DNA from: an uncultured Candidatus Saccharibacteria bacterium
GTDB lineage: Bacteria; Patescibacteriota; WWE3; UBA101185; UBA10185
Length of the DNA stretch: 64,000 nt
Reading direction: 5' to 3'
Assembly: GCA_964496905.1 (NCBI GenBank)
Contig: CAZCAQ010000003.1
Coordinates: 1,701 to 65,700 of the forward strand
Shown here: piece by piece, positions 5,735 through 41,509 of the stretch
Layout of the letters: every line of letters starts with the position of its first letter
Numbering within the stretch: the stretch's first letter is position 1
Notes under the pieces: generated by a model
Databases searched by the model: none
What the model was told of the DNA's origin: nothing
The model's input: the letters and a program-made list of their open reading frames with translations, nothing else
Program-made: the position numbers and the translations under genes

Positions 5735-7089
5735 ATTTATGTGTAATAGGAACGGGGTATATTGGATTAGTTGGAGCAGCAGTTTTTTCCGAGTGGGGAA
5801 ATAACATTGTAGGTGTTGATATTGATCAGGCAAAAATTGATCAAATTATGTCAGGCGATATGCCTATTTTTGAACCTGGACTTGAAGAAGTTGTAATGAC
5901 TAACATTAAAGAAGGTCGTTTAACATTTACAACTGACTTAGCAACAGGCATGAAAGATGCCGAAATTATTTTTATTTGCGTGGGAACTCCTCAGAGCGAT
6001 AGTGGTGCTGCAGACTTAAATGCTGTAGAAACCGTCGCAAAGCAAATCGCCGCACATTTAGATTCTTACAAACTTATTGTTATAAAAAGCACAGTGCCAG
6101 TTGGAACAAATGAGCACGTTCGGGAACTTATAACCCAAAATTTAAAATCACCTGTTGAATTTGGCGTCGCCTCAAACCCGGAATTTTTGCGCGAAGGTTA
6201 TTCTGTTGATGACATGAGAAACCCAGACAGAACAATTATTGGCTCAGATTCACAAAAAGCACTGGATATACTAAAAAAACTTTATTCTCACTTAACTACG
6301 CCAATTGTCGAGTGTGACTTTAGGTCGGCTGAACTTATTAAGTACGCTTCTAACGCCTTTTTAGCCACAAAGATCTCGTTTATAAACGAAATTTCTCAAT
6401 TGTGTGATAAGTCAGGCGCTGATGTTAGTGTTGTTGCTCAAGGCATGGGTCTAGATACGCGAATTGGGCCCAGGTTTTTGCAAGCAGGAATTGGTTATGG
6501 CGGAAGCTGTTTTCCTAAAGATGTAGCAGCCCTTTATAAAACTTCTACTGACCAAGCTTACGATTTTAAACTTTTAAGAGGCGTTATGGAAGTTAATGAA
6601 CGCCAAAGAAAGTTTTACTTTCACAAAATTACAAAAGCTCTAGGAAAAAACCTTAGCGGCAAAACTTTTGCTGTCCTAGGTTTGTCCTTTAAAGAGGCGA
6701 CCGACGACATTAGAGACTCTGTAGCCCTTGAAGTTGTAAAAATGCTTAGAGGTGCCGGTGCCGACATTAGGGCTTTTGATCCCGCCGCAATGGAAAACTC
6801 AAAATCCCAACTAGGCGATCAAGGGATTTACTACGCTACTTCAATTGAAGATGCCCTAAAAGGTGCTGATGCACTCTGCATATTAACTCCTTGGGATGAA
6901 TTCAAAAATCTTGACGTTTCCACTTTACAAAATCTTTCTACAAAAATGATATTTGATGGAAGAAACATTTTGGACAAGAAGGTAGTTCAAGACGCAGGCT
7001 TAGTTTATTTTGCAATTGGAAAAATAACTAACGGAAGCAAACTTATTGCAGAAAAACCTGCCTCGGCAGTTCTAAATGGAAAAAACTAG
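5731..7089 (+). CDS. ugd: UDP-glucose/GDP-mannose dehydrogenase family enzyme, most likely UDP-glucose 6-dehydrogenase
   Basis: N-terminal Rossmann IGTGYIGLVGA. Catalytic Cys region GYGGSCFPKDV. 452 aa. Confidence 0.8.
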   Translation: MNLCVIGTGYIGLVGAAVFSEWGNNIVGVDIDQAKIDQIMSGDMPIFEPGLEEVVMTNIKEGRLTFTTDLATGMKDAEIIFICVGTPQSDSGAADLNAVETVAKQIAAHLDSYKLIVIKSTVPVGTNEHVRELITQNLKSPVEFGVASNPEFLREGYSVDDMRNPDRTIIGSDSQKALDILKKLYSHLTTPIVECDFRSAELIKYASNAFLATKISFINEISQLCDKSGADVSVVAQGMGLDTRIGPRFLQAGIGYGGSCFPKDVAALYKTSTDQAYDFKLLRGVMEVNERQRKFYFHKITKALGKNLSGKTFAVLGLSFKEATDDIRDSVALEVVKMLRGAGADIRAFDPAAMENSKSQLGDQGIYYATSIEDALKGADALCILTPWDEFKNLDVSTLQNLSTKMIFDGRNILDKKVVQDAGLVYFAIGKITNGSKLIAEKPASAVLNGKN

Positions 7090-8317
7090 CAATAAGCGTA
7101 TTTTAGTTGTAATACCGCAGTTTCCAAAGCTTACTGAGACGTTTATTGAGCGTGACGTTTCAACTTTAGCTGAGTTTGAAAACACAGATATTACTGTTTT
7201 TTCGCTTCAACAAGGTAAGGCCTATTTATCTCCAAATTTAGAAAATCGAGTGGTTTATAAGCGTTTAGGCATTGGAGATGTACTAGTTGCTGTTTTTACT
7301 CAGTGTTTAGTAAAACCCAAAACTACGATAAATGTGCTTAAAATGTCCTTTTTAAAGGATAAGTACGATTCTCAAAACCCTATTAAAAAAGTAATACTTT
7401 TGCTCAAAGGGGCTGTGTATGCTCAGGTTTTTAGCAAATATAATCCACAAGAAATTCATGCACATTTTTTATCCGACATTTCCACTATTTGTATGGCTGC
7501 TGCTGAGTTTTTACAAATCCCATTTAGCCTAAACGTGCATGCAAAAGACGTATTGGTAAATCCTTCCATGCCGGTGGTAAAACTTAAAAAAGCAAAATTC
7601 ACAGCAGTGTGTAATAGGTACGCTTTTAACAGGCTAACGGAAATGGCAAAAGGACACACTAATTCAGTTCATCTTATTTATCACGGTCTTGATGAAAAAA
7701 GGATGGAAGTAGCAGATCTGGCATTAGTTAAACCTAACAGGCCCCTAATTTTTTTGCTCGTTTCTCGCTTGGTTGAAAAAAAAGGTCTGGAATACATGCT
7801 TGAAGCCTCGCGCATTCTACTTAATCGTGGCTTTGATCACGAAGTAGCAATTATTGGTGCCAACGACCCTTCTAGCCCAGTTAACATGTACGAAAAATAT
7901 AAAGCTGAAATTAATGATCTAAAAATGCAAGATGTTATAAAAATTATAGGTGAAGGTAAGGGAGTTCCTTTTGAAGAAGCAAAGCAGTACTACAAAATTG
8001 CCGATATTTTTGTTATGCCCAGTATTTCAGCAGGAAGTGGCGACGCAGATGGCGTTCCTAACACAATAATTGAGGCGGCCCTTTCAAAATTGCCAATTGT
8101 TGCAACCGATGCAGGGAGCATAAAGGATCTTTTAAACCCGCAAAATTCCATTTTAATTCACCAAAAAAGCGCTCAGGACATTGCAGATGCAATTGAAAAG
8201 CTTATGTTGGATCCGCAACTTAGGGATTCTTTAGGAAAGCGCGCCTACTACGATGCCAAAGAAATGTTTTCTTCTGCCCGCAACGTTAATATTTTGCATA
8301 AATTGCTGTTAGAATAA
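7076..8317 (+). CDS. GT4-family (GT-B fold) glycosyltransferase
   Basis: C-terminal E-x7-E-like region GVPNTIIEAALSKLPIVATDAGS. Confidence 0.75.
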   Translation: MEKTSNKRILVVIPQFPKLTETFIERDVSTLAEFENTDITVFSLQQGKAYLSPNLENRVVYKRLGIGDVLVAVFTQCLVKPKTTINVLKMSFLKDKYDSQNPIKKVILLLKGAVYAQVFSKYNPQEIHAHFLSDISTICMAAAEFLQIPFSLNVHAKDVLVNPSMPVVKLKKAKFTAVCNRYAFNRLTEMAKGHTNSVHLIYHGLDEKRMEVADLALVKPNRPLIFLLVSRLVEKKGLEYMLEASRILLNRGFDHEVAIIGANDPSSPVNMYEKYKAEINDLKMQDVIKIIGEGKGVPFEEAKQYYKIADIFVMPSISAGSGDADGVPNTIIEAALSKLPIVATDAGSIKDLLNPQNSILIHQKSAQDIADAIEKLMLDPQLRDSLGKRAYYDAKEMFSSARNVNILHKLLLE

Positions 8318-8321
8318 GTAC

Positions 8322-9518
8322 GTGCGCATTGCTGTATTTGTAAAAGGAACAATATTTCACTCTCAATACGGAGGCCTTGAAACGCAAAACCAGGCTTTAT
8401 GCCAAGGTTTAAGCCAAAAAGGTCATGAAATCCACATTTTTTCACCTAAAAAAGACGTTACAGAAAGCGAAAAAACTTCCAATTCTTTGCATTACCATTT
8501 TGTAGAGTCAAAGTTTAAAATGGGGCTAATTTTAGGCTTTTTTGGCTTTTTAGACAAAAACAATTGGGTAAACAGATCCTATGAAGAATTTGTCAAAACT
8601 GAAAAGTCAGGTCATTTTGACGTTATTATTTCACAAAGTACCGCTGGTATTGGCATTATAAAGCACAAAGAGGATCATAATTTTAAGTCAATTATGGTAG
8701 CCCACGGATCAATTTTATCTGAATACAAAACATATTTAAGAGAAATTAAGCTTACACAATTAAAAAATGCAGTTTTGCTAACTAAAAACACAGCTTTTGC
8801 CTTAAAAAATTTTTTTACTCGCCAAAGAGAATGTGTATTAAATTCGACAAAAATTGTAGCTGTTTCTACTTTTGTAAAAAAAGCCCTAATTGACGAAACA
8901 TTTGCTCCAGAAGAAAAATTTGTAGTTATTAACAATGGGATCGAACTTCCTAATTTTGACCTAAAATTTAAAAATTACAACAAAACTATGTTTTTTGCGG
9001 GAAGGCTGGAAAAATCAAAAGGTGTTGATATTTTGCTTTTGGCCTTAAAAAGTGTTTTTTTAGAGCATCCTGACGCAAAGTTGGTAATTGCTGGAAAAGG
9101 TCCTGAAGAAGAAAATCTTAAGATGCAGGTTCAAACCTTAGGAATTGATAAAAACGTGCACTTTGCGGGATGGGTTGAAAAAGACGCATTAGCCAACCTT
9201 TACAAAGAAGCGAGTATATTTGTACTTCCAACAATACGCCTAGAAGGCTTTCCAATGACCTTAGTCGAAGCTTCGGCCTATGGTTTGGCTTTAGTTGCCT
9301 CTGATATTGGTGGAAATGCAGACGCTATAAAAAACTCAGAAAATGGTTTTTTGATACAAGCAGGAAATATCAACCAGCTGTCAGATACTTTGGCTAATTT
9401 ACTAAGCAATGCTGAACAAATTAAAGCCTTTGGCCTTGCCTCAAGAAAGTCTTTTGATCACAACTTCACTCGCGATATAATGGTAGATAAGTATAACTTG
9501 GTTTTGCAAAAACTATGA
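8322..9518 (+). CDS. GT4-family glycosyltransferase
   Basis: EGFPMTLVEASAYGLALVASDIGG motif. N-terminal GT-B domain. Confidence 0.75.
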   Translation: MRIAVFVKGTIFHSQYGGLETQNQALCQGLSQKGHEIHIFSPKKDVTESEKTSNSLHYHFVESKFKMGLILGFFGFLDKNNWVNRSYEEFVKTEKSGHFDVIISQSTAGIGIIKHKEDHNFKSIMVAHGSILSEYKTYLREIKLTQLKNAVLLTKNTAFALKNFFTRQRECVLNSTKIVAVSTFVKKALIDETFAPEEKFVVINNGIELPNFDLKFKNYNKTMFFAGRLEKSKGVDILLLALKSVFLEHPDAKLVIAGKGPEEENLKMQVQTLGIDKNVHFAGWVEKDALANLYKEASIFVLPTIRLEGFPMTLVEASAYGLALVASDIGGNADAIKNSENGFLIQAGNINQLSDTLANLLSNAEQIKAFGLASRKSFDHNFTRDIMVDKYNLVLQKL

Positions 9519-10708
9519 AAATATTAAGAATTTCTTACGAGTGGCCTCCTCCTTGGATTGGGCTAACTCCACACATTTATGAAGTCACAGCCCACCAGGC
9601 CAAAATGGGGCATTTTATTCACGTTTTTTGTGCTAGGTGGTTTAAAGCCGGTGATTTAGAGACTTTGCCAAACACCAGATTACACACTTTTTTCCGCGAA
9701 CCGCTTCCAGGCACCCTTTTTTTTACAGTTGGGCCGTTGCTACTGCTTTATTACTGGATGTGGAGGTGTTTAAATACTCCAGACATTATTCACATGCACG
9801 GTCATTTTGGATATTGGATTCTTGTGTATAGAAATTTTTTAAGGTCTATTAAAAAAAAGAACTTTGAAACCAGAATCCCGCTTGTGGTTCATTTTCACAA
9901 CAATGCACAGGAGCGTTGGGACAAAATGAAAGAGGCCGGCACTAAAATAAATTGGTATTCGTCAAAAATTTCATATCCCATGGAAATTAGGGCAAATAAG
10001 CTCGCTATTAAGCTCGCCGACGCCTACATTTTTGTAAGTGAAGATATGAAAAAAGCCGCTATAAATTTGTATGGTGCCGATGAGTCCAAATGTTATGTTG
10101 TAGAGTCAGGAGTTAATACCGAAATGTTTACTCCCGTAGATATGAACGAACGCGACAAAACCCGAAAAGAACTTGGGCTAATTTTTACAGACCGTGTAAT
10201 TGTAAATGTCGGTTTTATTAAAGAGCGAAAGAATATTCATTTGCTTGTTGAATCACTTGTTAAGCTACCTCCCGAATACAAGTTAATTTTAATGGGCGAT
10301 GGAGATGCTGATTATATTGAAAAAATTGATGAATATGTGCGTGATCACAAACTAGAAACTAGAGTAATTAGAATTGGCGCCTCTTCCTATAAAGAAGTGC
10401 CCTTTGTTATGCAAATCTCAGATGTTTTTGTTTTACCGTCGTCTTACGAAGGTTTATCTAAAGCAGCACTCGAAAGTTTGGCTTGTGGAGTTCCCGTTTT
10501 GTACTCTGGCTCTACCTTTAGCCAAGAAATTCAAGGATTAACATACTTAAAAGAAATTACTCAACAATCAATTGCCGACAATATTAAACAAATTGTCGAA
10601 TCCAAGCCTTTTGTAGACATTGGCAAAATAAAGGCACTTTATTCATGGGTACGGAAAGTTGATGAAATTGAAAAGGTATATGACAAAGTTAAAAACACTA
10701 CTAATTAA
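9515..10708 (+). CDS. GT4-family glycosyltransferase
   Basis: EGLSKAALESLACGVPVLYS motif. Confidence 0.7.
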   Translation: MKILRISYEWPPPWIGLTPHIYEVTAHQAKMGHFIHVFCARWFKAGDLETLPNTRLHTFFREPLPGTLFFTVGPLLLLYYWMWRCLNTPDIIHMHGHFGYWILVYRNFLRSIKKKNFETRIPLVVHFHNNAQERWDKMKEAGTKINWYSSKISYPMEIRANKLAIKLADAYIFVSEDMKKAAINLYGADESKCYVVESGVNTEMFTPVDMNERDKTRKELGLIFTDRVIVNVGFIKERKNIHLLVESLVKLPPEYKLILMGDGDADYIEKIDEYVRDHKLETRVIRIGASSYKEVPFVMQISDVFVLPSSYEGLSKAALESLACGVPVLYSGSTFSQEIQGLTYLKEITQQSIADNIKQIVESKPFVDIGKIKALYSWVRKVDEIEKVYDKVKNTTN

Positions 10709-32976: not shown

Positions 32977-35900
32977 ATGAAACAAACCATTATTAAATAT
33001 ACAAAAACAATAGTAGTGCCTCTTTTACTTTATAGTGCAGTAACTTTCTTTCTGCTACATAAAACACTTTTATCAGAAGGAATAATCACGGGCAGTGATT
33101 GGGCAATTCCAGCTACTTCACTACAAGCTGAAAATTACTTTTATAGCAGTTTTTCTACTTGGACAACATTAGGTGGACTTGCTGGCGGATTTAAATCTTT
33201 TTTGACCGACATACCAGTAAGCACTTTCTTTTTTGCTTTAAGCAAGGCTGGGTTTTCTGGAGCTGCAATTTCCAAGATCTTTTTATCAGTAACTTATGTC
33301 ATGGCAGGTTTAGGTATGTATTACCATTTAAGGTATCAAAAGCTAGGTTATGGTATGGCCTTTTTAGGTGGTTTATTGTACATAACTGCTCCATTTTTTT
33401 TTAATTTTACAGTAATAGGTTGGATTTACGCCTTGCTGGGCATGGCATTATTTCCAGTTTATTTAACTGTCCTAGATAAGTCAGTTCGCGAGAAAAAGTT
33501 ATATTTGGCTGTAGCTGCTGGTTTAATTTTTACATTGGCTATGGTTCAATCCACATCTTTATTGTGGTTTAGCGTTGGGACAGGTTCTTTGATGCTTAGT
33601 TATATTAGTGACAGAGTTCAAATTAAAAATTATATAAATTCACTTTTGTGCGTCGGAGTTGTGTTAGTTATTACAAACATATTTTGGTTAGTTAATATTT
33701 TTGGTGATGCAACAGTTACAGGGTCGTCAAATGTGTTAAGTAGTGTAAGTACAGGCACGTGGTCTCGGTTATCAGTTCTTAACATCATTAGGGGTTGGGG
33801 CACATTGTTTAACTATTCTTTCGAAAGTGCATTCGAAAAATCTTTAGTGGCTTTCTCGTTTGTTATGCCTATAGTGTTAGCAGCATATTCATATTTTGTA
33901 AAAGAAGGGCTTAAGATCAAAAAACTTACATATTTAACACTATATCTATTCCCGATTGTATTATTTTTTCTAGGACAAGGTGTTGTATCTAGTATTCCAT
34001 TCGGTAATGTTTTTAGAGATGGGGGAAGAATTTCAGTCACAAGCACTTTTAGCTTAGTTGCATTATCTGTATTGGGATTAAATTATCTTAAAAAAAACAA
34101 GTATTACGGACTTTTTCTTGTGCTGTTAGTGTGCCTGTTAATTAACATGCATCCATTTTTGCGAGGTGACATTTGGAAAGATCAAGAGTACGAAAGTGAT
34201 ATTAGACTACGTACGTACGAATATAATAAAGAGTATGACAAGGTTGAGGCCTACTTAGCTCAAGATGGAAAAACATCCAAGGCTTTATATTTTCCAATTA
34301 CATCGTCTATAGAGGATTTCTCTGACAATGACTTTAGAGGCACTTACAAAGAAATGGCATATTTATATGCAAACATGGCTCCGGTACCAGGTAGCGTTTA
34401 TATATCAGACAAGGAAAAAGATGGTATAAATGGTTTTTACCGGTCCCTCTCTGATGAGATTAAGTGGAATTTTGACAAAGTAGAGCCAACTATTTTCGAC
34501 ATGGTGAATTTTAAGTATTTAGTGTTCTATAAAAAATCCATGGTTGCTACTGATTGGGAAGTTTACTCCAAAGTACAAAAAAGTGAGAATTTTGAAGACA
34601 TAACGACAAAGATTCTAGGTGCAGATCACGATGCAATAGCCGTGTTTAAAATTAAAACACCCAGTCAAGAAATTACAAGTCCAAAAAGTGTGTATATTAC
34701 TAATTCCTCTATAACAAAAGATATTCAGATGCAAACATTAATTAAGAAAAATGGGGTTGCTTTATTTCACCCAACACCCCCAATAAAATCAACAAGTGGC
34801 CTAGATATTGTTGAGGCCGAAAGAATTGATGACTACAAATTACTTAACTACACAAAAAAGGCTACTGACATTTGGGGTTGGCCCAGCGTAAACAACGTCC
34901 CTGGAACTTTTAAATATAGATTAGTCTTAACAAAAGAAAGAATTAATGAGTTTAAAGCTGAAGACGGCTTCGATAAAGTCGATGCTTTGTTGTGGCATGC
35001 GCTAAAAAGAACACAGGAGATACAAAAATATCAAAACACAGATCACACTCAACAATTTGAATCTTTTTCGAATAAGTACGAACAAATTAAGACTGAACTG
35101 GGAACAATTCCAGTTACTGAACGTAAACAACCCTTTTATTCTTCAGTAAATAAGGTTGGATTTTATTTAAAAGAACTTCAGAATATTCAAGGTTTTGAAA
35201 ATTATTTTAAAGATTATAAAGTATTTGTGAATGGGCTTAACTTAATTACTTGCGAGGGTATATGTTATGAAAAAAATATTGATTCCAAGACTACAGTTCC
35301 TATTTTTATTGACGAAACAGAAATTACTACACAGCAGCTTGTTTTTGCAAAAGACACAATTGTATTGAATCACATTGAAGAAATTTTAGTAACAGATGAG
35401 GATTACAAAGCTAGTGGCACCTTTATAAAAGATTTTGGCGAGAAGAACAATCTGTTTAGTTATGTAAATATTGCCGAGAGAATTGTATCCTCAGATATTT
35501 TTAAGAACTTATATATATCCCTAGTGGGCGCAAAGATAGTCGAGTTACCAAGTCTTACCAAAGGCAAAACCTATAGAGTTGATTTTGACTACTATACTTC
35601 TGCAACGCCGATTAAGATCGTATTTATTGAGGATCTCTTAATTGCTAAAGAGGACTTTGATGTCAAAAATGGCAAAAATAATTTTAGCTACCAACCTGTT
35701 GTTACTTCTATGACATCAATCTCTCCGGAAGATCTTGATTCTAGAGACGCTGAAAAACTAGCTCATTTTACAGCAAGGTTCGAGCCCACAGCAATGTCAA
35801 AAAGAACATATTTGTTTATATCTGATGGCATAAATAAAACAAATGCCAGTGAGCAAAAAATTCTAAATTTTAAAGTGACAAAAGAAGATAACGGAAGGCT

Positions 35901-36306
35901 CTTTTTAGCAAAAAAAGAGCCAGAAAAAGCTGTCACACAGCAAACCATAAAGTTTGATAAGCAATCACGTACGCGGTATATAGGCAGAATAGAAAAGCCC
36001 TCAGGGAATTTTGCAATAATCTTAAAGCAAAGGTTCCACCCTGGTTGGGAACTTAAATTACTAAATAAAGTACCTGGTCGTAAATCAGTGACCCCCAAAC
36101 ATTATGCCGCAAATGGATATGCAAACGGTTGGATTGTTGATAGCTCTAGTTTTACAAAAAACGAACCACTAAATTTTGTAATAGAATTTAAGCCTCAGCG
36201 TAAAACCGAAGTTTTGATGGTTATTTCAGGGTTGTTTATTGTTGCTTTTATTTATATAGTTTTAAAGGGTATTTATTTAGACTCTAAAAAGCCAAGTACT
36301 AAATGA
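32977..36306 (+). CDS. Very large (1109 aa) membrane protein: N-terminal polytopic GT-C-like domain, about 650-aa extracytoplasmic region, C-terminal TM anchor
   Basis: Hydropathy only. Architecture reminiscent of AftD/Emb-type arabinosyltransferase layouts, but no diagnostic motif was recognised. Confidence 0.5.
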   Translation: MKQTIIKYTKTIVVPLLLYSAVTFFLLHKTLLSEGIITGSDWAIPATSLQAENYFYSSFSTWTTLGGLAGGFKSFLTDIPVSTFFFALSKAGFSGAAISKIFLSVTYVMAGLGMYYHLRYQKLGYGMAFLGGLLYITAPFFFNFTVIGWIYALLGMALFPVYLTVLDKSVREKKLYLAVAAGLIFTLAMVQSTSLLWFSVGTGSLMLSYISDRVQIKNYINSLLCVGVVLVITNIFWLVNIFGDATVTGSSNVLSSVSTGTWSRLSVLNIIRGWGTLFNYSFESAFEKSLVAFSFVMPIVLAAYSYFVKEGLKIKKLTYLTLYLFPIVLFFLGQGVVSSIPFGNVFRDGGRISVTSTFSLVALSVLGLNYLKKNKYYGLFLVLLVCLLINMHPFLRGDIWKDQEYESDIRLRTYEYNKEYDKVEAYLAQDGKTSKALYFPITSSIEDFSDNDFRGTYKEMAYLYANMAPVPGSVYISDKEKDGINGFYRSLSDEIKWNFDKVEPTIFDMVNFKYLVFYKKSMVATDWEVYSKVQKSENFEDITTKILGADHDAIAVFKIKTPSQEITSPKSVYITNSSITKDIQMQTLIKKNGVALFHPTPPIKSTSGLDIVEAERIDDYKLLNYTKKATDIWGWPSVNNVPGTFKYRLVLTKERINEFKAEDGFDKVDALLWHALKRTQEIQKYQNTDHTQQFESFSNKYEQIKTELGTIPVTERKQPFYSSVNKVGFYLKELQNIQGFENYFKDYKVFVNGLNLITCEGICYEKNIDSKTTVPIFIDETEITTQQLVFAKDTIVLNHIEEILVTDEDYKASGTFIKDFGEKNNLFSYVNIAERIVSSDIFKNLYISLVGAKIVELPSLTKGKTYRVDFDYYTSATPIKIVFIEDLLIAKEDFDVKNGKNNFSYQPVVTSMTSISPEDLDSRDAEKLAHFTARFEPTAMSKRTYLFISDGINKTNASEQKILNFKVTKEDNGRLFLAKKEPEKAVTQQTIKFDKQSRTRYIGRIEKPSGNFAIILKQRFHPGWELKLLNKVPGRKSVTPKHYAANGYANGWIVDSSSFTKNEPLNFVIEFKPQRKTEVLMVISGLFIVAFIYIVLKGIYLDSKKPSTK

Positions 36307-37907
36307 TTATATTAGGTGGTTTAGGTGATCAAATCACAACTTTAGTTTGGGGAACCGTTTCTAAGCCTTTTTTTTCATTTTTAAATTCAGGCTTTGCCGA
36401 ATTCCCACAATATGAAAAATTATTTTGGGATTTTTTGCACCCCTTGCAATCAAACCAGCCTTTAACTTGGTTCTTATACTCTGTACTAATTTCTATTCTT
36501 GGCGCAGGCGGTTATAACTTAATTTTACTTATCAATTTGTTATTAAGTTTTGTATGCGCCTTAGTATTGTTTCGCAAATACAGGTTCTCTTTTGTTTATG
36601 CAGCCATTTTCACCTTTTCTGGCTATATGTGGTCACATTTAGGTTTACATCCAGACTTGATTCAACTATGGCCGATTCCGCTATATTTGTATTTTTTGCT
36701 TGAAAAGCAGAATATGTCAGATTTAAAAAAAAGTATTGTTTTAGCTATGCTAGCTTCGCTGACGCTTGCTTTGTCTAATTACTATGGTTATTTTTTGCTA
36801 ATAACTACAGTTTTCTATGCTGTTATTTGTTTATTTACACTGTTACTCCAAAAAAACAAACTCTCGCTCAATCAAGTACGTAATGCGTTAATTTGGGTTG
36901 GTATAGTACTAGTCTTAAGTTCTACTTTTTTGTATCCCTATATCTCGGCAAACTATTTAACAAAAACAGAGAAGGTAACATTAAACACGCGATTAGCTCT
37001 TGATCGCCCGTATGCGGATTTTTTTACATTTAGTTCAAGACCTTGGTATTTTTTTATTCCATCGCCAAACAATCCTGTATATGGAAATTTATCTGAAAAT
37101 GTATTAACCAAGCTTAAAGATACAAACTATTTTTTGGCAGATGATTACTTTACAGCTGAACATGGTGCAAATTTTTTTGGGTTTATGTTTTTGACTTCAG
37201 TTTTGCTGAGTAGCGTTTTTATGTTTATTAAGACCAAAGGGGATGCGCGTGTAAAGATTGCCCAATTATTCATTTTGCTGTTCTTCCTCTTTTTGTATAT
37301 GCTTCCTCCATTTTTTACTCTTTCTGGAATAAAAATTTATACTCCAGGCCACTTAGCATTTACATATTTCCCCATGTTTAGGGTAACGGCGCGGATTTCT
37401 ATAATAATTTTGCCCATATTACTGCTAATTCTGGCAACAAACATAAACTACATCTGGCTCCATTTTGAGCGGTGGAGGAAATCACTAAAAGTAGCCATGG
37501 TTGCTATGCTACTAGTAACATTGATAGAAGTTTTTAGTATGCCTCCATTACCATCAGCACCTAGTGTCCCAGAGGTTTATACATTTCTCAATAAACATAG
37601 TGACACACGGGCAACCTTTTTTGTTTACCCCTATTCCAAAACCCAAGAGGCGCTGTATTTTTTAAGTGAACATGAAAGATTTTTACTCAATCCTCGTGAT
37701 TACAATTCTGCACAAGTTGCTTCCGAACACATTACTCTAAGATTTGCATCTGATGGTGGGTATGAAGATGTATTAAAATTAAACCCAGACTATATTGTTG
37801 TATTTAAAAACATATCACCTAAGGAAAAAGCAAAAATACTTTCAAGTAAGGAGTTTGAACTTGAACAAGAATTTTCGGATGCATATTTACTAAAAGTTGT
37901 AGAATAA
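36303..37907 (+). CDS. Polytopic membrane protein (GT-C-like), unknown specificity
   Basis: 534 aa with about 12 TM helices and a soluble C-terminus. 4-bp overlap with the upstream gene. Confidence 0.5.
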   Translation: MIILGGLGDQITTLVWGTVSKPFFSFLNSGFAEFPQYEKLFWDFLHPLQSNQPLTWFLYSVLISILGAGGYNLILLINLLLSFVCALVLFRKYRFSFVYAAIFTFSGYMWSHLGLHPDLIQLWPIPLYLYFLLEKQNMSDLKKSIVLAMLASLTLALSNYYGYFLLITTVFYAVICLFTLLLQKNKLSLNQVRNALIWVGIVLVLSSTFLYPYISANYLTKTEKVTLNTRLALDRPYADFFTFSSRPWYFFIPSPNNPVYGNLSENVLTKLKDTNYFLADDYFTAEHGANFFGFMFLTSVLLSSVFMFIKTKGDARVKIAQLFILLFFLFLYMLPPFFTLSGIKIYTPGHLAFTYFPMFRVTARISIIILPILLLILATNINYIWLHFERWRKSLKVAMVAMLLVTLIEVFSMPPLPSAPSVPEVYTFLNKHSDTRATFFVYPYSKTQEALYFLSEHERFLLNPRDYNSAQVASEHITLRFASDGGYEDVLKLNPDYIVVFKNISPKEKAKILSSKEFELEQEFSDAYLLKVVE

Positions 37908-37911
37908 ACAT

Positions 37912-39354
37912 ATGAAGAATTTTATGTTAATTTTTTTGAGCGGTTTTTTAGTTTATTTTGGCTCATTCATGTTTGTCTATTTTTCTGGACTTAACACTTT
38001 GCCAATTCAATCCGAAGATACAGTGCCCGCAATGTTTATTCCAGTTACTTTGCTAAAAGAAGGCACTTTTTATGCTGATACATACTACGATATGATGCTT
38101 GATCGGTATCCGCATCCTGATGATAGAAATGGAAAGGATGGGCTAGTTCCGTTTTATATTAAACGCATCCAAAGTAACGAAAGCGCACCTTGCCAAAAGC
38201 TTCCCGCTGGTATGACCGCGACTTGTTTTAAAACGCACTACGTCACCGCATTCACACTAACACCGGGAATACTTGCAACTCCTGTTTATTTGCCTGCACT
38301 GCTAGCTGGTATGCAGATTACTTGGGAAAATCTCATACTGTTATCACACATGGCTGCAGCTTTAATAATGTCATTTTCCGGGGGTTTTATGTACATTCTG
38401 CTTAAAAAGCATTTTTTTCCGCAACCCGATCAAGACAAAAAAGCGATCTTTTTAACCTCAATTTATCTTTTTGCCACAGTTAACTTTGCTATGCTTTCAC
38501 AGTCTTTGTGGCAACACGGAGCATTGCAGCTGTTTACAATTGCGGGGCTGATATTTTTGTTAAATGCGCTAAAAAACCAAAAACCTGCTCATTTTGCACT
38601 TTTTGGATTCTTTTTGTCGCTAGCAGTAATTACGCGTCCAACTGCGGCATTGTTTGCAGTTTTGTTATATTTACTAATTCCGCTCACACTAAAAAAGCAA
38701 GGCATAAAACCCACTATTTACACTTTTTTGGGAGTTTTGCCTGTTGTAGCATTTTTTGTTTGGTACACGCTTGTATATTACGGAGGTTTTTCAAATAATG
38801 GATACGCTTCGCAAATGGGGAACAGCTGGATCTCTCCACTTTGGGAGGGCTTTTTGGGCATTTGGGTGTCTCCTAGCAAAGGCATTTTGATTTACTCGCC
38901 TGTTTTGTTCTTTTCACTAGTTGGCGCATATAAAGCCTTTAAAAACAAATCTTTGGAAAATCGGCCACTTTTTTTGCTCAGCGTCGTAATCATCGTTTTG
39001 CACACTTTAGTAATGGGGAAGTGGAAACACTGGTTTGGAGGTTTTTCTTTTGGTTACCGCCTAGCGAGCGATGTTTTGCCATTTTTTATAATTTTGCTCG
39101 CTTCCTATGTTTTGTCTGATTTGTATGCGCGCACCCGCAAAGTGTTTTATGTATTATTTGCGTTTTCAGTTGGAGTTCAGCTGATGGGAATGGTGTTTTT
39201 TGATGGAATTTGGCACAACGCTTACGATATGGGTTTTAAGGATACTCGCTGGCTTTGGTCGTTGCAGGATTCCGAGGCTGCTTTTAATGTTCGTCGGGTG
39301 TTAGTGAAGTCAGGGTATCTGGAGCGAGCGTGTCCGGAGTGTCTGCCGAATTAG
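37912..39354 (+). CDS. Polytopic membrane protein (GT-C-like), unknown specificity
   Basis: 480 aa, multi-TM. The last about 25 codons are GC-rich and overlap the 3' end of the convergent gene. Confidence 0.5.
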   Translation: MKNFMLIFLSGFLVYFGSFMFVYFSGLNTLPIQSEDTVPAMFIPVTLLKEGTFYADTYYDMMLDRYPHPDDRNGKDGLVPFYIKRIQSNESAPCQKLPAGMTATCFKTHYVTAFTLTPGILATPVYLPALLAGMQITWENLILLSHMAAALIMSFSGGFMYILLKKHFFPQPDQDKKAIFLTSIYLFATVNFAMLSQSLWQHGALQLFTIAGLIFLLNALKNQKPAHFALFGFFLSLAVITRPTAALFAVLLYLLIPLTLKKQGIKPTIYTFLGVLPVVAFFVWYTLVYYGGFSNNGYASQMGNSWISPLWEGFLGIWVSPSKGILIYSPVLFFSLVGAYKAFKNKSLENRPLFLLSVVIIVLHTLVMGKWKHWFGGFSFGYRLASDVLPFFIILLASYVLSDLYARTRKVFYVLFAFSVGVQLMGMVFFDGIWHNAYDMGFKDTRWLWSLQDSEAAFNVRRVLVKSGYLERACPECLPN

Positions 39355-40372
39355 TTTGCAATTTTTCAAATAGTAACTTTGCAGCTTCAACTGCTTTGGT
39401 ATGTTTAGCGTCTACTTTTTTCCTAAATTTTGTATCAGTAAATCTCTTCCTGAGTAAATCCTTATTAGAAGTAACATCATGAAAGGCATCCCCAATATAG
39501 TCCAATAAGTTTCCGTCGTTAATTTTGTCTGCGGCTTCCAGATCTCCACTTAGTAGTGCAAGAGTAGAAAAACAATACAGCGTATCTCTTACTTCTTGCT
39601 TCTCGTAATCATGTTCTTTGCTTATATTAACGATTATTGTAGATATTGTGAAATAAGTGAGCAGTGCTTCCCAAATATAATCTGGTGCATCATTCCTAAT
39701 TGAACTACAGAATGCTTCAACATGTGCTTGCATTTCTTGCGCATATCTTAAGTCAAAAAGAGTCTTTTGGATTTGATCTACTAAGTCATTGTTTTCTTCC
39801 GTTTTTCTCGCCGCATCTCGTACAGCAGACAGCCTATGCTCAACTGTAGCTGAGCCTAACTTCTGCTCTTGCATTCTGTGAACTGCCTCGTGTGTCAGAT
39901 TATATCTTCTGAATTCCTCCAACCCCTCCCCTCGACTTAGGTCCAAAAGTGATCGTAGATACTCTCTGTATATTGGATGTGCATTTGAGAGCTTGTCAAA
40001 ATTAGCTTCATTAAAGGTTTGATACTGCTTTAATAATTCTGAGGATAGTTGTTCTGGTGTAGCACTAATTAAAAAATATGGGTTCTCCTCTGTTCCAATA
40101 ATGACACCTTCAAAATCGTTTGGGTCATGAAATTTCCACCTTGTGAAACTTCCATAAGTGCCTTTAGCTACCGAGGCATCGCTTAAGTTTGCATGTAATG
40201 TTCTATCTGCAACTTCAATTGATTCAGGTGAAACGGTGGCAATAGTTTGAATGGTGTCACTCACTCTAGTATTATAAGATTGGCGTAAGCAATGCACAAT
40301 CAAGTTAAATACAACATCATATGCCTCTCCAACCAGCTGTGGGATTTTCCCAATTGGACAAACAAGCGCCAC
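39284..40372 (-). CDS. Hypothetical soluble protein with an HExxH motif (LTHEAVHRMQE) and a low-complexity Thr/Pro/Asp tail
   Basis: The only minus-strand ORF inside the 45-kb plus-strand locus. 362 aa, no TM helices. Its 5' and 3' ends both overlap neighbouring ORFs, so the start is uncertain. Confidence 0.4.
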   Translation of the reverse strand: MALVCPIGKIPQLVGEAYDVVFNLIVHCLRQSYNTRVSDTIQTIATVSPESIEVADRTLHANLSDASVAKGTYGSFTRWKFHDPNDFEGVIIGTEENPYFLISATPEQLSSELLKQYQTFNEANFDKLSNAHPIYREYLRSLLDLSRGEGLEEFRRYNLTHEAVHRMQEQKLGSATVEHRLSAVRDAARKTEENNDLVDQIQKTLFDLRYAQEMQAHVEAFCSSIRNDAPDYIWEALLTYFTISTIIVNISKEHDYEKQEVRDTLYCFSTLALLSGDLEAADKINDGNLLDYIGDAFHDVTSNKDLLRKRFTDTKFRKKVDAKHTKAVEAAKLLFEKLQTNSADTPDTLAPDTLTSLTPDEH

Positions 40373-41509
40373 TCAATGTCGCGACTTGCTGCGCTTGGGC
40401 ATAACGTTCTTTTTGTTGATCCGCCCATTAATGCGGGCCGCGTGCTTTACAATCAAGTAAAGCGAAATAATTGGAATGCATACCGGCTTGTGACGCAAGT
40501 TAAAAAAGATGCGGAATCTGGGGCAAATGTATACACACCAATAAACTTGGCGCCGTTTCCACAAATAACTTCTAAACTTCATGCAAAAAGAATCAACAAA
40601 TTAGCGAAAAAGCTTTTTGATCCAAATCTCAAAACACTTCTTTGGGTTTATCATGTGCAAATTCCAGAGCTTGCCCATTATCTGGACACATTGCATCACG
40701 ATTTTTTAATTTACGACTGCGTTGATAATTATTCCGGCTTTCCCAATGTGAAAAATCCGCTTAAGGCTTCGGTTTCAAGTTCTCAAATTAGTGAGATAGA
40801 GCAAATGCTCACTACCAAGGCAAATTTAGTCTTTGCAACGGCTCCTGGACTTTACGATAAACTCCAGAAATATAACAAAAACGTGTATTTTACTCCAAAT
40901 GTAGGGGATTACGAAAAATTTAAAAATGCTCGTCAATTAAAGGATCAAACGCCAGATGAGATTAAAGCAATAAAACGGCCTCGAATTGGTTTTACGGGTG
41001 CGCTGGATGATTACAAGTTTGATTACGATTTAATGCGGAAAATTGCAACTGATCATCCAAACTATCAATTTATATTAATTGGTCCTATGGCACTAAAAGA
41101 CCGCGAAGCCAGCGATACTATAGAAAAATTTAAAGACCTGCCAAACATTCATGCGCTAGGTTCTCGCGATTTTAAACAAATCCACCTTTATTTTGCAGGC
41201 TTTGATGCTTTTATGATTCCATACGTTTTAAACGACTATACGGTTGGTGGATGTTTTCCCATGAAATTCCACGAATCCCTAGCTGCTGGTTTTCCAACAA
41301 TTGTCACTGATTTACCAGCTTACTTGCCGTTTGCAGATGTAGCTTATATTTCTAAAACTTACGATGAGTTTTCTCAAAACCTTAAAAAAGCGCTAGAAGA
41401 AGATACTCCTGAGCGTATAAAAGCTCGCCAAGCGGTGGCTAAAGAGAACAACTGGGAAGGTAAAGTTCAAAAGCTTTTATCCCTCATAAACCAACATATT
41501 ACTGTATAA
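40292..41509 (+). CDS. GT-B fold glycosyltransferase (GT1/GT4-like)
   Basis: N-terminal beta-strand YNIICLSNQLWDFP...HNVLFVDPP. C-terminal FPMKFHESLAAGFPTIVTDLP. An alternative ATG at 40376 would remove the overlap with the divergent ORF. Confidence 0.65.
   Translation: MHNQVKYNIICLSNQLWDFPNWTNKRHSMSRLAALGHNVLFVDPPINAGRVLYNQVKRNNWNAYRLVTQVKKDAESGANVYTPINLAPFPQITSKLHAKRINKLAKKLFDPNLKTLLWVYHVQIPELAHYLDTLHHDFLIYDCVDNYSGFPNVKNPLKASVSSSQISEIEQMLTTKANLVFATAPGLYDKLQKYNKNVYFTPNVGDYEKFKNARQLKDQTPDEIKAIKRPRIGFTGALDDYKFDYDLMRKIATDHPNYQFILIGPMALKDREASDTIEKFKDLPNIHALGSRDFKQIHLYFAGFDAFMIPYVLNDYTVGGCFPMKFHESLAAGFPTIVTDLPAYLPFADVAYISKTYDEFSQNLKKALEEDTPERIKARQAVAKENNWEGKVQKLLSLINQHITV

Follow-up and report, generated by a model that had tools for sequence, protein, structure and literature searches.

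A lineage-restricted HExxH gene on the opposite strand occupies a variable slot in a WWE3 glycosylation locus

We report here on a minus-strand open reading frame (ORF) carrying an HExxH motif within an envelope glycosylation locus of an uncultured Candidatus Saccharibacteria bacterium classified in WWE3. The ORF was found in a 64,000-nucleotide stretch of contig CAZCAQ010000003.1, called the window throughout, and lies between a gene coding for a polytopic membrane protein and a gene coding for a GT4-type glycosyltransferase (GT), an interval hereafter termed the slot. The ORF is a genuine gene, and a lineage-restricted accessory gene of one WWE3 subgroup. The whole of our observations is best explained by a real, old, fast-evolving and sometimes lost gene of this subgroup, encoding an acidic, mostly helical and probably zincin-like protein of ~326 aa, whose odd ends have simple explanations; we assign this reading a probability of roughly 0.55. 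An earlier note made from the letters of the window had instead seen in the ORF an acquired cargo gene whose insertion remodelled both neighbours.

Results

The minus-strand ORF is a genuine gene

The longest frame of the ORF list at this position extends over 39284..40372 on the minus strand, begins with GTG and encodes 362 aa, slightly inside the limits of 39270-40376 first given for it. When only ORFs of 150 aa or longer are counted, no other frame from 2520 to 51135 is on the minus strand, in agreement with the description of the ORF as the only minus-strand gene in ~45 kb, and the interval 39355-40291 contains no plus-strand ORF of 60 aa or more. At the local base composition, a run of 326 codons without a stop has a probability of ~6e-11. 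Furthermore, a codon log-odds model trained on the 46 other genes of the window gave +0.13 to +0.17 bits/codon for the ORF frame and about -0.35 for the other five frames. GC contents at the three codon positions (GC1/GC2/GC3, 0.50/0.36/0.31) are host-like, and the overall GC content of the ORF (0.38-0.39) is comparable to that of its neighbours (0.405 and 0.388). Finally, two independent Logan assemblies, L001 and L002, carry the ORF unchanged and are identical for it. Because such a stop-free length is unlikely by chance, the codon signal is frame-specific and host-like, and the ORF is the same in both assemblies, we conclude that the ORF is a genuine gene. The earlier note had named a lack of homologues and expression as the mark of a spurious ORF; positional homologues were found in three subclades.

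The predicted product is acidic (isoelectric point 5.0) and soluble, with a grand average of hydropathy of -0.55, a maximum 19-residue hydropathy of 1.37 and no transmembrane segment. The LTHEAVHRMQE motif and the Thr/Pro/Asp-rich tail previously noticed in it are both present.

Rapidly diverging homologues are found at the same position in three subclades

Single-sequence searches of 5.8 billion word-indexed proteins, and of 1.84 billion representatives by full phmmer, retrieved only the protein itself, and a profile built from four family members recovered P0123 as the only further protein. A first metagenome scan using a single membrane protein as the query returned nothing, and a second one recovered one further P0123-like copy, in L092. 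Within our comparative set (122 loci fetched in all, designated by L numbers), positional homologues were found in three groups of loci. In L007 and L008, the gene is split into ORFs of 144 and 193 aa (...FMLEHEIQHHYQE..., motif HEIQHHYQE). In L085, L086 and L092, it corresponds to P0123 (312 aa, ...VLLHEEKHVQQDQE..., LLHEEKHVQQD), and in L088 and L089 it encodes 298 aa with the same LLHEEKHVQQD. All of these homologues align colinearly with the window protein, and in every case the gene is flanked by the orthologous membrane and GT genes and encoded on the minus strand. The overlap with the membrane gene measures 71, 59 or 17 nt, always 2 modulo 3, pointing to a single origin of the junction. 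When the family is defined by position, strand, overlap frame and colinear similarity including the motif, it includes the L007, L085 and L088 groups, whereas the two slot proteins of L003 lack the similarity.

Identity among these ORFs is only 16-22%, versus 59-61% for the flanking membrane proteins and 66-71% for the GTs. The family occurs in all three subclades on the membrane-protein and GT trees and is missing from L005, L087 and L090. With presence in several subclades and absence from these three loci, ancestral presence followed by losses would be the most economical history; the ancestor of the subgroup probably already carried the gene, which then diverged very fast and was lost several times. 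Regarding the proposed acquisition, the variability of the slot and the absence from L005, L087 and L090 show the gene to be accessory, but a recent event is contradicted by the same place, orientation and frame in three subclades with flanks ~60-70% identical, by host-like GC content and codons and by the lack of repeats. Relatives with the same gene in the same place and of normal composition, which the earlier note had named as an argument against acquisition, do exist, although the sequence of the gene is poorly conserved among them.

Comparison of L085 with L088 revealed a mosaic (L085 coordinates): the loci are unalignable 5' of ~6080, 74-81% identical at 6083-6482 and ~93-100% identical at 6583-9782, with a dip at ~8480-8580, and 72-99% identical downstream. 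This pattern indicates that homologous recombination across the glycan locus is frequent. A recent transfer of the ORF alone between these two loci was considered and dropped, as the ORF lies inside the larger near-identical recombinant block.

L003, the closest relative with cargo, carries two minus-strand slot ORFs of ~315 aa at 7376-8314 and 8518-9474. The product of one of them, L003_312, has an HExxH motif of its own (FFHELAHAND) and the same antisense tail as the window protein (see below), and only this antisense-derived tail matches the family. The other, L003_318, has no HExxH and aligns colinearly, but weakly, with the family at its C-terminus (hmmsearch E 0.027; hhalign probability 14%). 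These proteins may be tandem, extremely diverged paralogues or replacements.

At the junction between the 144- and 193-aa ORFs (L007:7977-7984), the frame changes, and an AAGGA lies 6 nt before the GTG of the second ORF. The L007 and L008 sequences do not differ at this junction and may not constitute independent data. The split could be a recent frameshift or reflect a two-part, translationally coupled gene.

An HExxH block is the best-conserved part of the protein

In an alignment of the window, L007, L085 and L088 proteins, which represent three independent lineages at ~20% identity, L123, H125, E126, H129, Q132 and Q179 are invariant and the residue at +8 from H125 is always acidic (326-aa numbering; H125-E126-x-x-H129 is encoded at 39878-39892 on the minus strand). 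Pairwise BLAST of the window protein against the 144-aa ORF of L007 gave E=3e-5 over the motif segment. HExxH was present in just 1 of the 46 other genes of the window. Because this block alone survives ~80% divergence and is rare elsewhere, it is likely a functional site. Secondary structure prediction placed a beta-hairpin at residues 52-67, followed by long helices with HExxH in helix 113-136 (low confidence), a predicted layout compatible with a zincin. The acidic residue at +8 is too far along the helix to bind the same metal ion as the first histidine.

The most likely activity is that of a zinc-dependent zincin-like hydrolase, putatively cytoplasmic, with metal binding, catalysis and location all predicted. 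The HExxH noticed in the earlier note is genuine, and the protein has no characterised relatives; a zincin-like identity is plausible rather than proven. The defence or effector role also envisaged there found no support, since PADLOC gave 0 families at E<=1, PHROGs nothing meaningful, and searches of phage, plasmid and IMG/VR sequences no match to the ORF. Matches to Mn-catalase (E 0.16) and giardin (E 0.04) were weak and treated as noise, and a ferritin-like di-metal protein was rejected because there is no second conserved ExxH.

Like small cytoplasmic zincins of the gluzincin type, the protein is soluble and acidic and carries its HExxH, the best-conserved block, on a predicted long helix after a beta-hairpin. 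It differs from them in having no significant sequence or fold match and no conserved third ligand identified, and in the glutamine at +7, which is unusual for the classical families. Accessory cytoplasmic proteases with an HExxH are also known from mobile or defence contexts, such as ImmA/IrrE (M78) and the Lit peptidase (U49). The ORF resembles these as a single, accessory, patchy and fast-evolving gene for a soluble HExxH protein; however, it matches neither Pfam nor PADLOC, lacks a partner Xre-type regulator and a prophage or element context, and is host-like in composition.

The C-terminal tail is an antisense read-through of the membrane gene

The earlier note had placed the 3' overlap with the membrane gene in a locally GC-rich patch, which we confirmed: the overlap is 71 bp, and the GC content of 39280-39360 is 0.506, versus a mean of 0.359 for 81-bp windows (standard deviation 0.059), within the top 1.2%. 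An alignment of 20 membrane-protein homologues, including ones from loci without the ORF, revealed that the C-terminus encoded here (...SE..FN.RR.LVK....ERACP.CLP.) is among the best-conserved parts of the membrane protein, with F458, N459, R461, R462, V465, K466, A473, C474 and C477 invariant. Since this C-terminus is also conserved where no minus-strand gene exists, the plus frame is the selected frame in the overlap, and the GC-rich patch is explained by the conserved coding end of the membrane gene that lies there.

The ORF has no stop codon of its own. Its protein ends ...NSADTPDTLAPDTLTSLTPDEH, and the antisense TAA or TGA arises from the TT(T/C)-A of the invariant Phe-Asn codons F458-N459. 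In L085, the stop falls at "gtt aag" (59-nt overlap), and in the near-identical L088 a synonymous Pro change (CCG to CCT) creates an antisense TAG, making the tail 14 residues shorter (298 vs 312 aa). Where the ORF stops thus depends on synonymous codon choice in the membrane gene, and the Thr/Pro/Asp tail, the outcome of antisense read-through, is dispensable and does not form a domain. Lacking a stop of its own, the frame runs antisense into the 3' end of the membrane gene until the Phe-Asn codons provide one. A sequence scan detected no terminators between the convergent genes.

The 5' overlap is a probable artefact of start-codon choice

The 5' end of the longest frame overlaps the GT start (40292) by 81 bp, an overlap that hinges on the start codon chosen. 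GTG 40264 is the start used by the public gene calls (P0001, 326 aa), and it lines up with the ATG of the L085/P0123 homologue (MSDTIQTIATVSPE... vs MVETLRQPVPSI...). With this start, the divergent start codons are separated by a 27-bp spacer, the equivalents of which are 31 bp in L085, 42 bp in L007 and 52 bp in L003. Alternative candidate starts at 40297 and 40303 likewise overlap the GT ATG. From these comparisons, GTG 40264 is the most likely translation start, in which case there is no 81-bp divergent overlap; what the earlier note had called an implausible 80-bp overlap is an artefact of choosing the longest ORF.

A TGTATAAT-like box is located 7-16 nt 5' of the GT ATG in 8/8 loci examined, whether the ORF is present or absent. 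Its conservation suggests that the GT heads its own transcription unit and that the slot is an inter-operon boundary. In the window, a promoter scan identified a plus-strand promoter-like site at 40247..40275, and its TATTAT overlaps a minus-strand TATAAT in such a way that -7T and -11A coincide reciprocally. The predicted transcription start sites are ~40282 (+) and ~40264 (-), 18 bp apart, a spacing that corresponds to the commonest geometry of bidirectional promoters (PMC10268837). As the predicted minus-strand start site is the first base of GTG 40264, a leaderless mRNA is implied. Divergent transcription from the near-symmetric -10 element of the GT promoter would then yield a leaderless or near-leaderless mRNA of the ORF.

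Elsewhere in the window, TATAAT-like boxes are also found ~5-15 nt 5' of several start codons (e.g. 41517, 27290, 60581, 25547, 43737), and Shine-Dalgarno-like motifs precede only 10 of 46 genes. Together, the position of these boxes and the scarcity of such motifs suggest that leaderless or short-leader mRNAs and internal promoters may be widespread in this WWE3 genome.

The junction between the membrane and GT genes is a recurrent accessory-gene slot

In the comparative set, the gap between the membrane and GT genes is <160 bp in ~45 WWE3 loci and 0.8-3.3 kb in ~18 loci. Depending on the lineage, the cargo consists of a GT2, a further PMT_2-like membrane protein, methyltransferases, PIN toxins, a minus-strand cluster of MerR-HTH, DUF4325 and SEC-C genes, or a Mor/TPR-like protein. 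Accessory genes have recurrently occupied this junction. The ORF fills this variable slot, which probably lies between two transcription units, of which the membrane gene would end one and the GT4 gene would open the next from its own conserved -10 box; in other WWE3 lineages, the slot is empty or holds unrelated cargo.

Both neighbours are intact. The GT N-terminus (MHNQVKYNIIC..., start 40292) matches that of homologues in loci without the ORF, and the membrane protein has its full, conserved C-terminus; therefore, neither neighbour was remodelled, contrary to what had been proposed. Only short, imperfect repeats of chance level were found as candidates for flanking direct or inverted repeats or a target-site duplication. 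No recombinase ORF was found within the 937-bp interval, and no integrase or tRNA was seen flanking the ORF.

Conserved flanks that bracket a lineage-variable or empty slot, together with mosaic recombination across the locus, are reminiscent of O-antigen and capsule-type loci. The ORF differs from the cargo of such loci in being an opposite-strand ORFan that encodes no glycan enzyme, lacks a stop of its own and overlaps the upstream gene.

Several other slots drew our attention. In L030:7410-9928 (WWE3 metagenome-assembled genome contig JAAZNV010000006.1), the slot holds four minus-strand genes, coding for a 247-aa MerR-HTH protein with an unassigned C-terminal region, a 98-aa DUF4325 STAS-like protein, a 280-aa protein ending in SEC-C, and a 184-aa protein with one predicted transmembrane segment and a weak SLATT_1 match. 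This set has the appearance of an inserted cassette, regulatory or defence-like. Toxin genes of the PIN-domain (VapC-like) type are found in the slot 3' of a GT2 gene at L042:7259-7720 and L040:8638-9141. Three small ORFs located upstream in L042 have alike C-terminal ends (...RQWL.x.GY.V...) and may be antitoxin-like or contain a repeated small domain.

Genomic context

The locus is an envelope glycosylation locus. The surrounding ~45 kb encode GT4 glycosyltransferases, methyltransferases, PMT_2/GT39-like and other large membrane proteins, and a Wzy_C/PMT fusion, and the annotations of membrane-protein homologues name candidate division WWE3 or Patescibacteria. Two very large membrane proteins without Pfam domains are encoded directly before the membrane gene (32977-36306, 1109 aa; 36303-37907, 534 aa). 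The gene immediately 5' of the membrane gene varies strongly among close relatives (a DUF6311 gene in L003; unalignable between L085 and L088), making this a second variable point. In the GT gene, 40906-40954 and 41323-41425 contain 13 of the 17 differences observed over 15.3 kb between the window and the near-identical assembly L001, none of the 17 being in the ORF; this clustering suggests small recombination tracts within the population. The coordinates of the features are given in Table 1.

Table 1. Position of the ORF, its motif, its neighbours and its overlapping or shared elements in the window.
Feature	Position	Strand	Remarks
HExxH accessory protein, probable coding sequence	39284..40264	-	326 aa; GTG start 40264; stop TAA 39286-39284; public gene call P0001
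Conserved motif L123-x-H125-E126-x-x-H129-x-x-Q132-E133 (LTHEAVHRMQE)	39866..39898	-	Best-conserved segment of the family
Convergent overlap, 71 bp	39284..39354	both	Plus frame, membrane protein C-terminus; minus frame, Thr/Pro/Asp read-through tail
Upstream extension of the longest ORF, 36 codons	40265..40372	-	Probably untranslated; no counterpart in homologues
Symmetric -10-like element	40270..40276	both	TATTAT 40270-40275 (+); TATAAT 40276-40271 (-); putative shared bidirectional promoter core of the GT operon and the ORF
Upstream neighbour, 480-aa polytopic membrane protein, weakly PMT_2/GT39-like and LA_3751/LA_3752-like	37912..39354	+	Last gene of the upstream unit
Downstream neighbour, GT4-type glycosyltransferase, TuaH-like, 405 aa	40292..41509	+	First gene of the downstream unit

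Discussion

Our results favour an old accessory gene that probably encodes a zincin-like protein, and several observations weigh against this reading. Regarding the protein, the four-sequence alignment contains no invariant Glu, His or Asp 3' of HExxH that could act as the third metal ligand, the only downstream invariants being Q132 and Q179, and no peptidase family was matched in Pfam (E<=10, five slot proteins), NCBIfam or sequence and profile searches of the PDB. AlphaFold 2 models were poor, with a mean confidence (pLDDT) of 39 from the single sequence and of 49.9 from a two-sequence alignment (predicted template modelling score 0.54), and Foldseek matched generic helical proteins at TM<0.25. 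Regarding the gene, its codon score is low within the host range (mean 0.244, standard deviation 0.054, minimum 0.118), the L007 copy is split in two ORFs and could be decaying, and the two minus-strand proteins of L003 have no demonstrable homology to the family. As these L003 proteins are not demonstrably homologous and the locus recombines, the cargo may have been replaced laterally rather than inherited by vertical descent. Furthermore, the sole close pair, L085 and L088, differs by 7 nonsynonymous and 1 synonymous changes, too few to show purifying selection; this count is uninformative because the ORF sits in the near-identical recombinant block at ~6580-9780.

The main alternative keeps the gene at its conserved position but supposes that HExxH is non-catalytic, the product being a helical structural, regulatory or scaffold protein, such as a modulator of the adjacent glycosylation machinery, in which the motif binds metal structurally or not at all. 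The missing third ligand and peptidase match fit this proposal, as do the prediction of mostly long helices, fold matches to helical repeat or bundle proteins, and the constant location of the family inside the glycan locus. In contrast, L-x-HExxH-x-x-Q-[ED] is the sole block surviving at 16-22% identity and has the usual form of an active-site signature, and HExxH is rare among the other genes (1/46). We take this alternative seriously while leaning against it. That the ORF is a very divergent member of DUF4157 (PF13699), the 'PVC-metallopeptidase' domain associated with toxins of extracellular contractile injection systems, appears very improbable. In DUF4157, the motif continues as HExxHxxQQ. 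The H-E-x-x-H-x-x-Q of our family, with Q at +7 and often Q, E or D at +8 (LLHEEKHVQQ in L085), resembles this signature. However, although DUF4157 does contain HExxH (PMC8213781), PF13699 was absent from the hmmscan results of all five slot proteins against Pfam (E<=10). The ORF protein also differs in domain position and surrounding sequence, and the neighbours are glycosyl- and methyltransferases and membrane proteins, with no contractile-injection or phage-tail-like genes among those called.

A recently acquired mobile cargo, such as a defence protein, a toxin or an effector, whose insertion disrupted the operon and remodelled both neighbours, is unlikely. Such an origin would fit a gene that is the only one on the minus strand in ~48 kb, that is absent from the close relative L005 while most WWE3 loci have the two neighbours adjacent, that evolves as fast as conflict genes typically do, and that sits in a slot filled in other lineages by PIN toxins or a MerR/STAS-like/SEC-C cluster. 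It is difficult to reconcile with the recurrence of homologues, at this slot and in this frame, in three subclades whose flanks are ~60% identical, with neighbours whose full-length termini are conserved, and with the negative PADLOC, PHROG, phage, plasmid and IMG/VR searches. The windowed GC and codon-usage comparison suggested by the earlier note as a check for foreign origin revealed nothing foreign: GC content (0.38-0.39) and the order GC1>GC2>GC3 are host-like, the codon score, although low, is above zero and does not leave the range of host genes, and no flanking repeats, integrase or tRNA were seen. At the opposite extreme, the ORF might be a decaying, unexpressed remnant that is open by chance or because inactivation was recent. 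This we regard as rather improbable, even though no homologues are known outside a tiny clade, the codon score is at the low end of normal, L007 carries a split copy, the L085/L088 pair stands at 7N:1S and the gene was repeatedly lost. At least three lineages have retained frames of ~300 codons through ~80% amino-acid divergence, and this in AT-rich DNA, where a single one would arise by chance at ~6e-11; the motif is conserved and the frame-specific coding signal is clear. Moreover, both halves of the L007 copy are open, the second with an AAGGA-N6-GTG start context.

More speculatively, the ORF may found a so far undescribed and conflict-driven family of zincin-like proteases in one WWE3 subclade, wired into the glycosylation locus through the symmetric -10 of the GT promoter and its convergence on the membrane gene, and acting on the glycosylation machinery or on an invader. 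It may for example be a Lit-like abortive-infection protease or a regulator switching surface glycan synthesis. We consider such a role doubtful; if true, it would explain the extreme divergence and the repeated loss of the gene.

The old, fast-evolving accessory gene that we favour removes an apparent anomaly, as the choice of start codon and antisense reading into a conserved gene end account for the supposed insertion, the overlaps and the GC-rich patch. In addition, a variable slot is now documented where two operons of a WWE3 surface-glycan locus meet. The protein family has no annotation, as is the case for much of the proteome of the candidate phyla radiation, and its importance is modest on present evidence. 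Should the protein turn out to be an active metalloprotease with a link to glycan biosynthesis or to phage conflict, it would provide a small, tractable entry into the envelope biology of uncultivated Patescibacteria.

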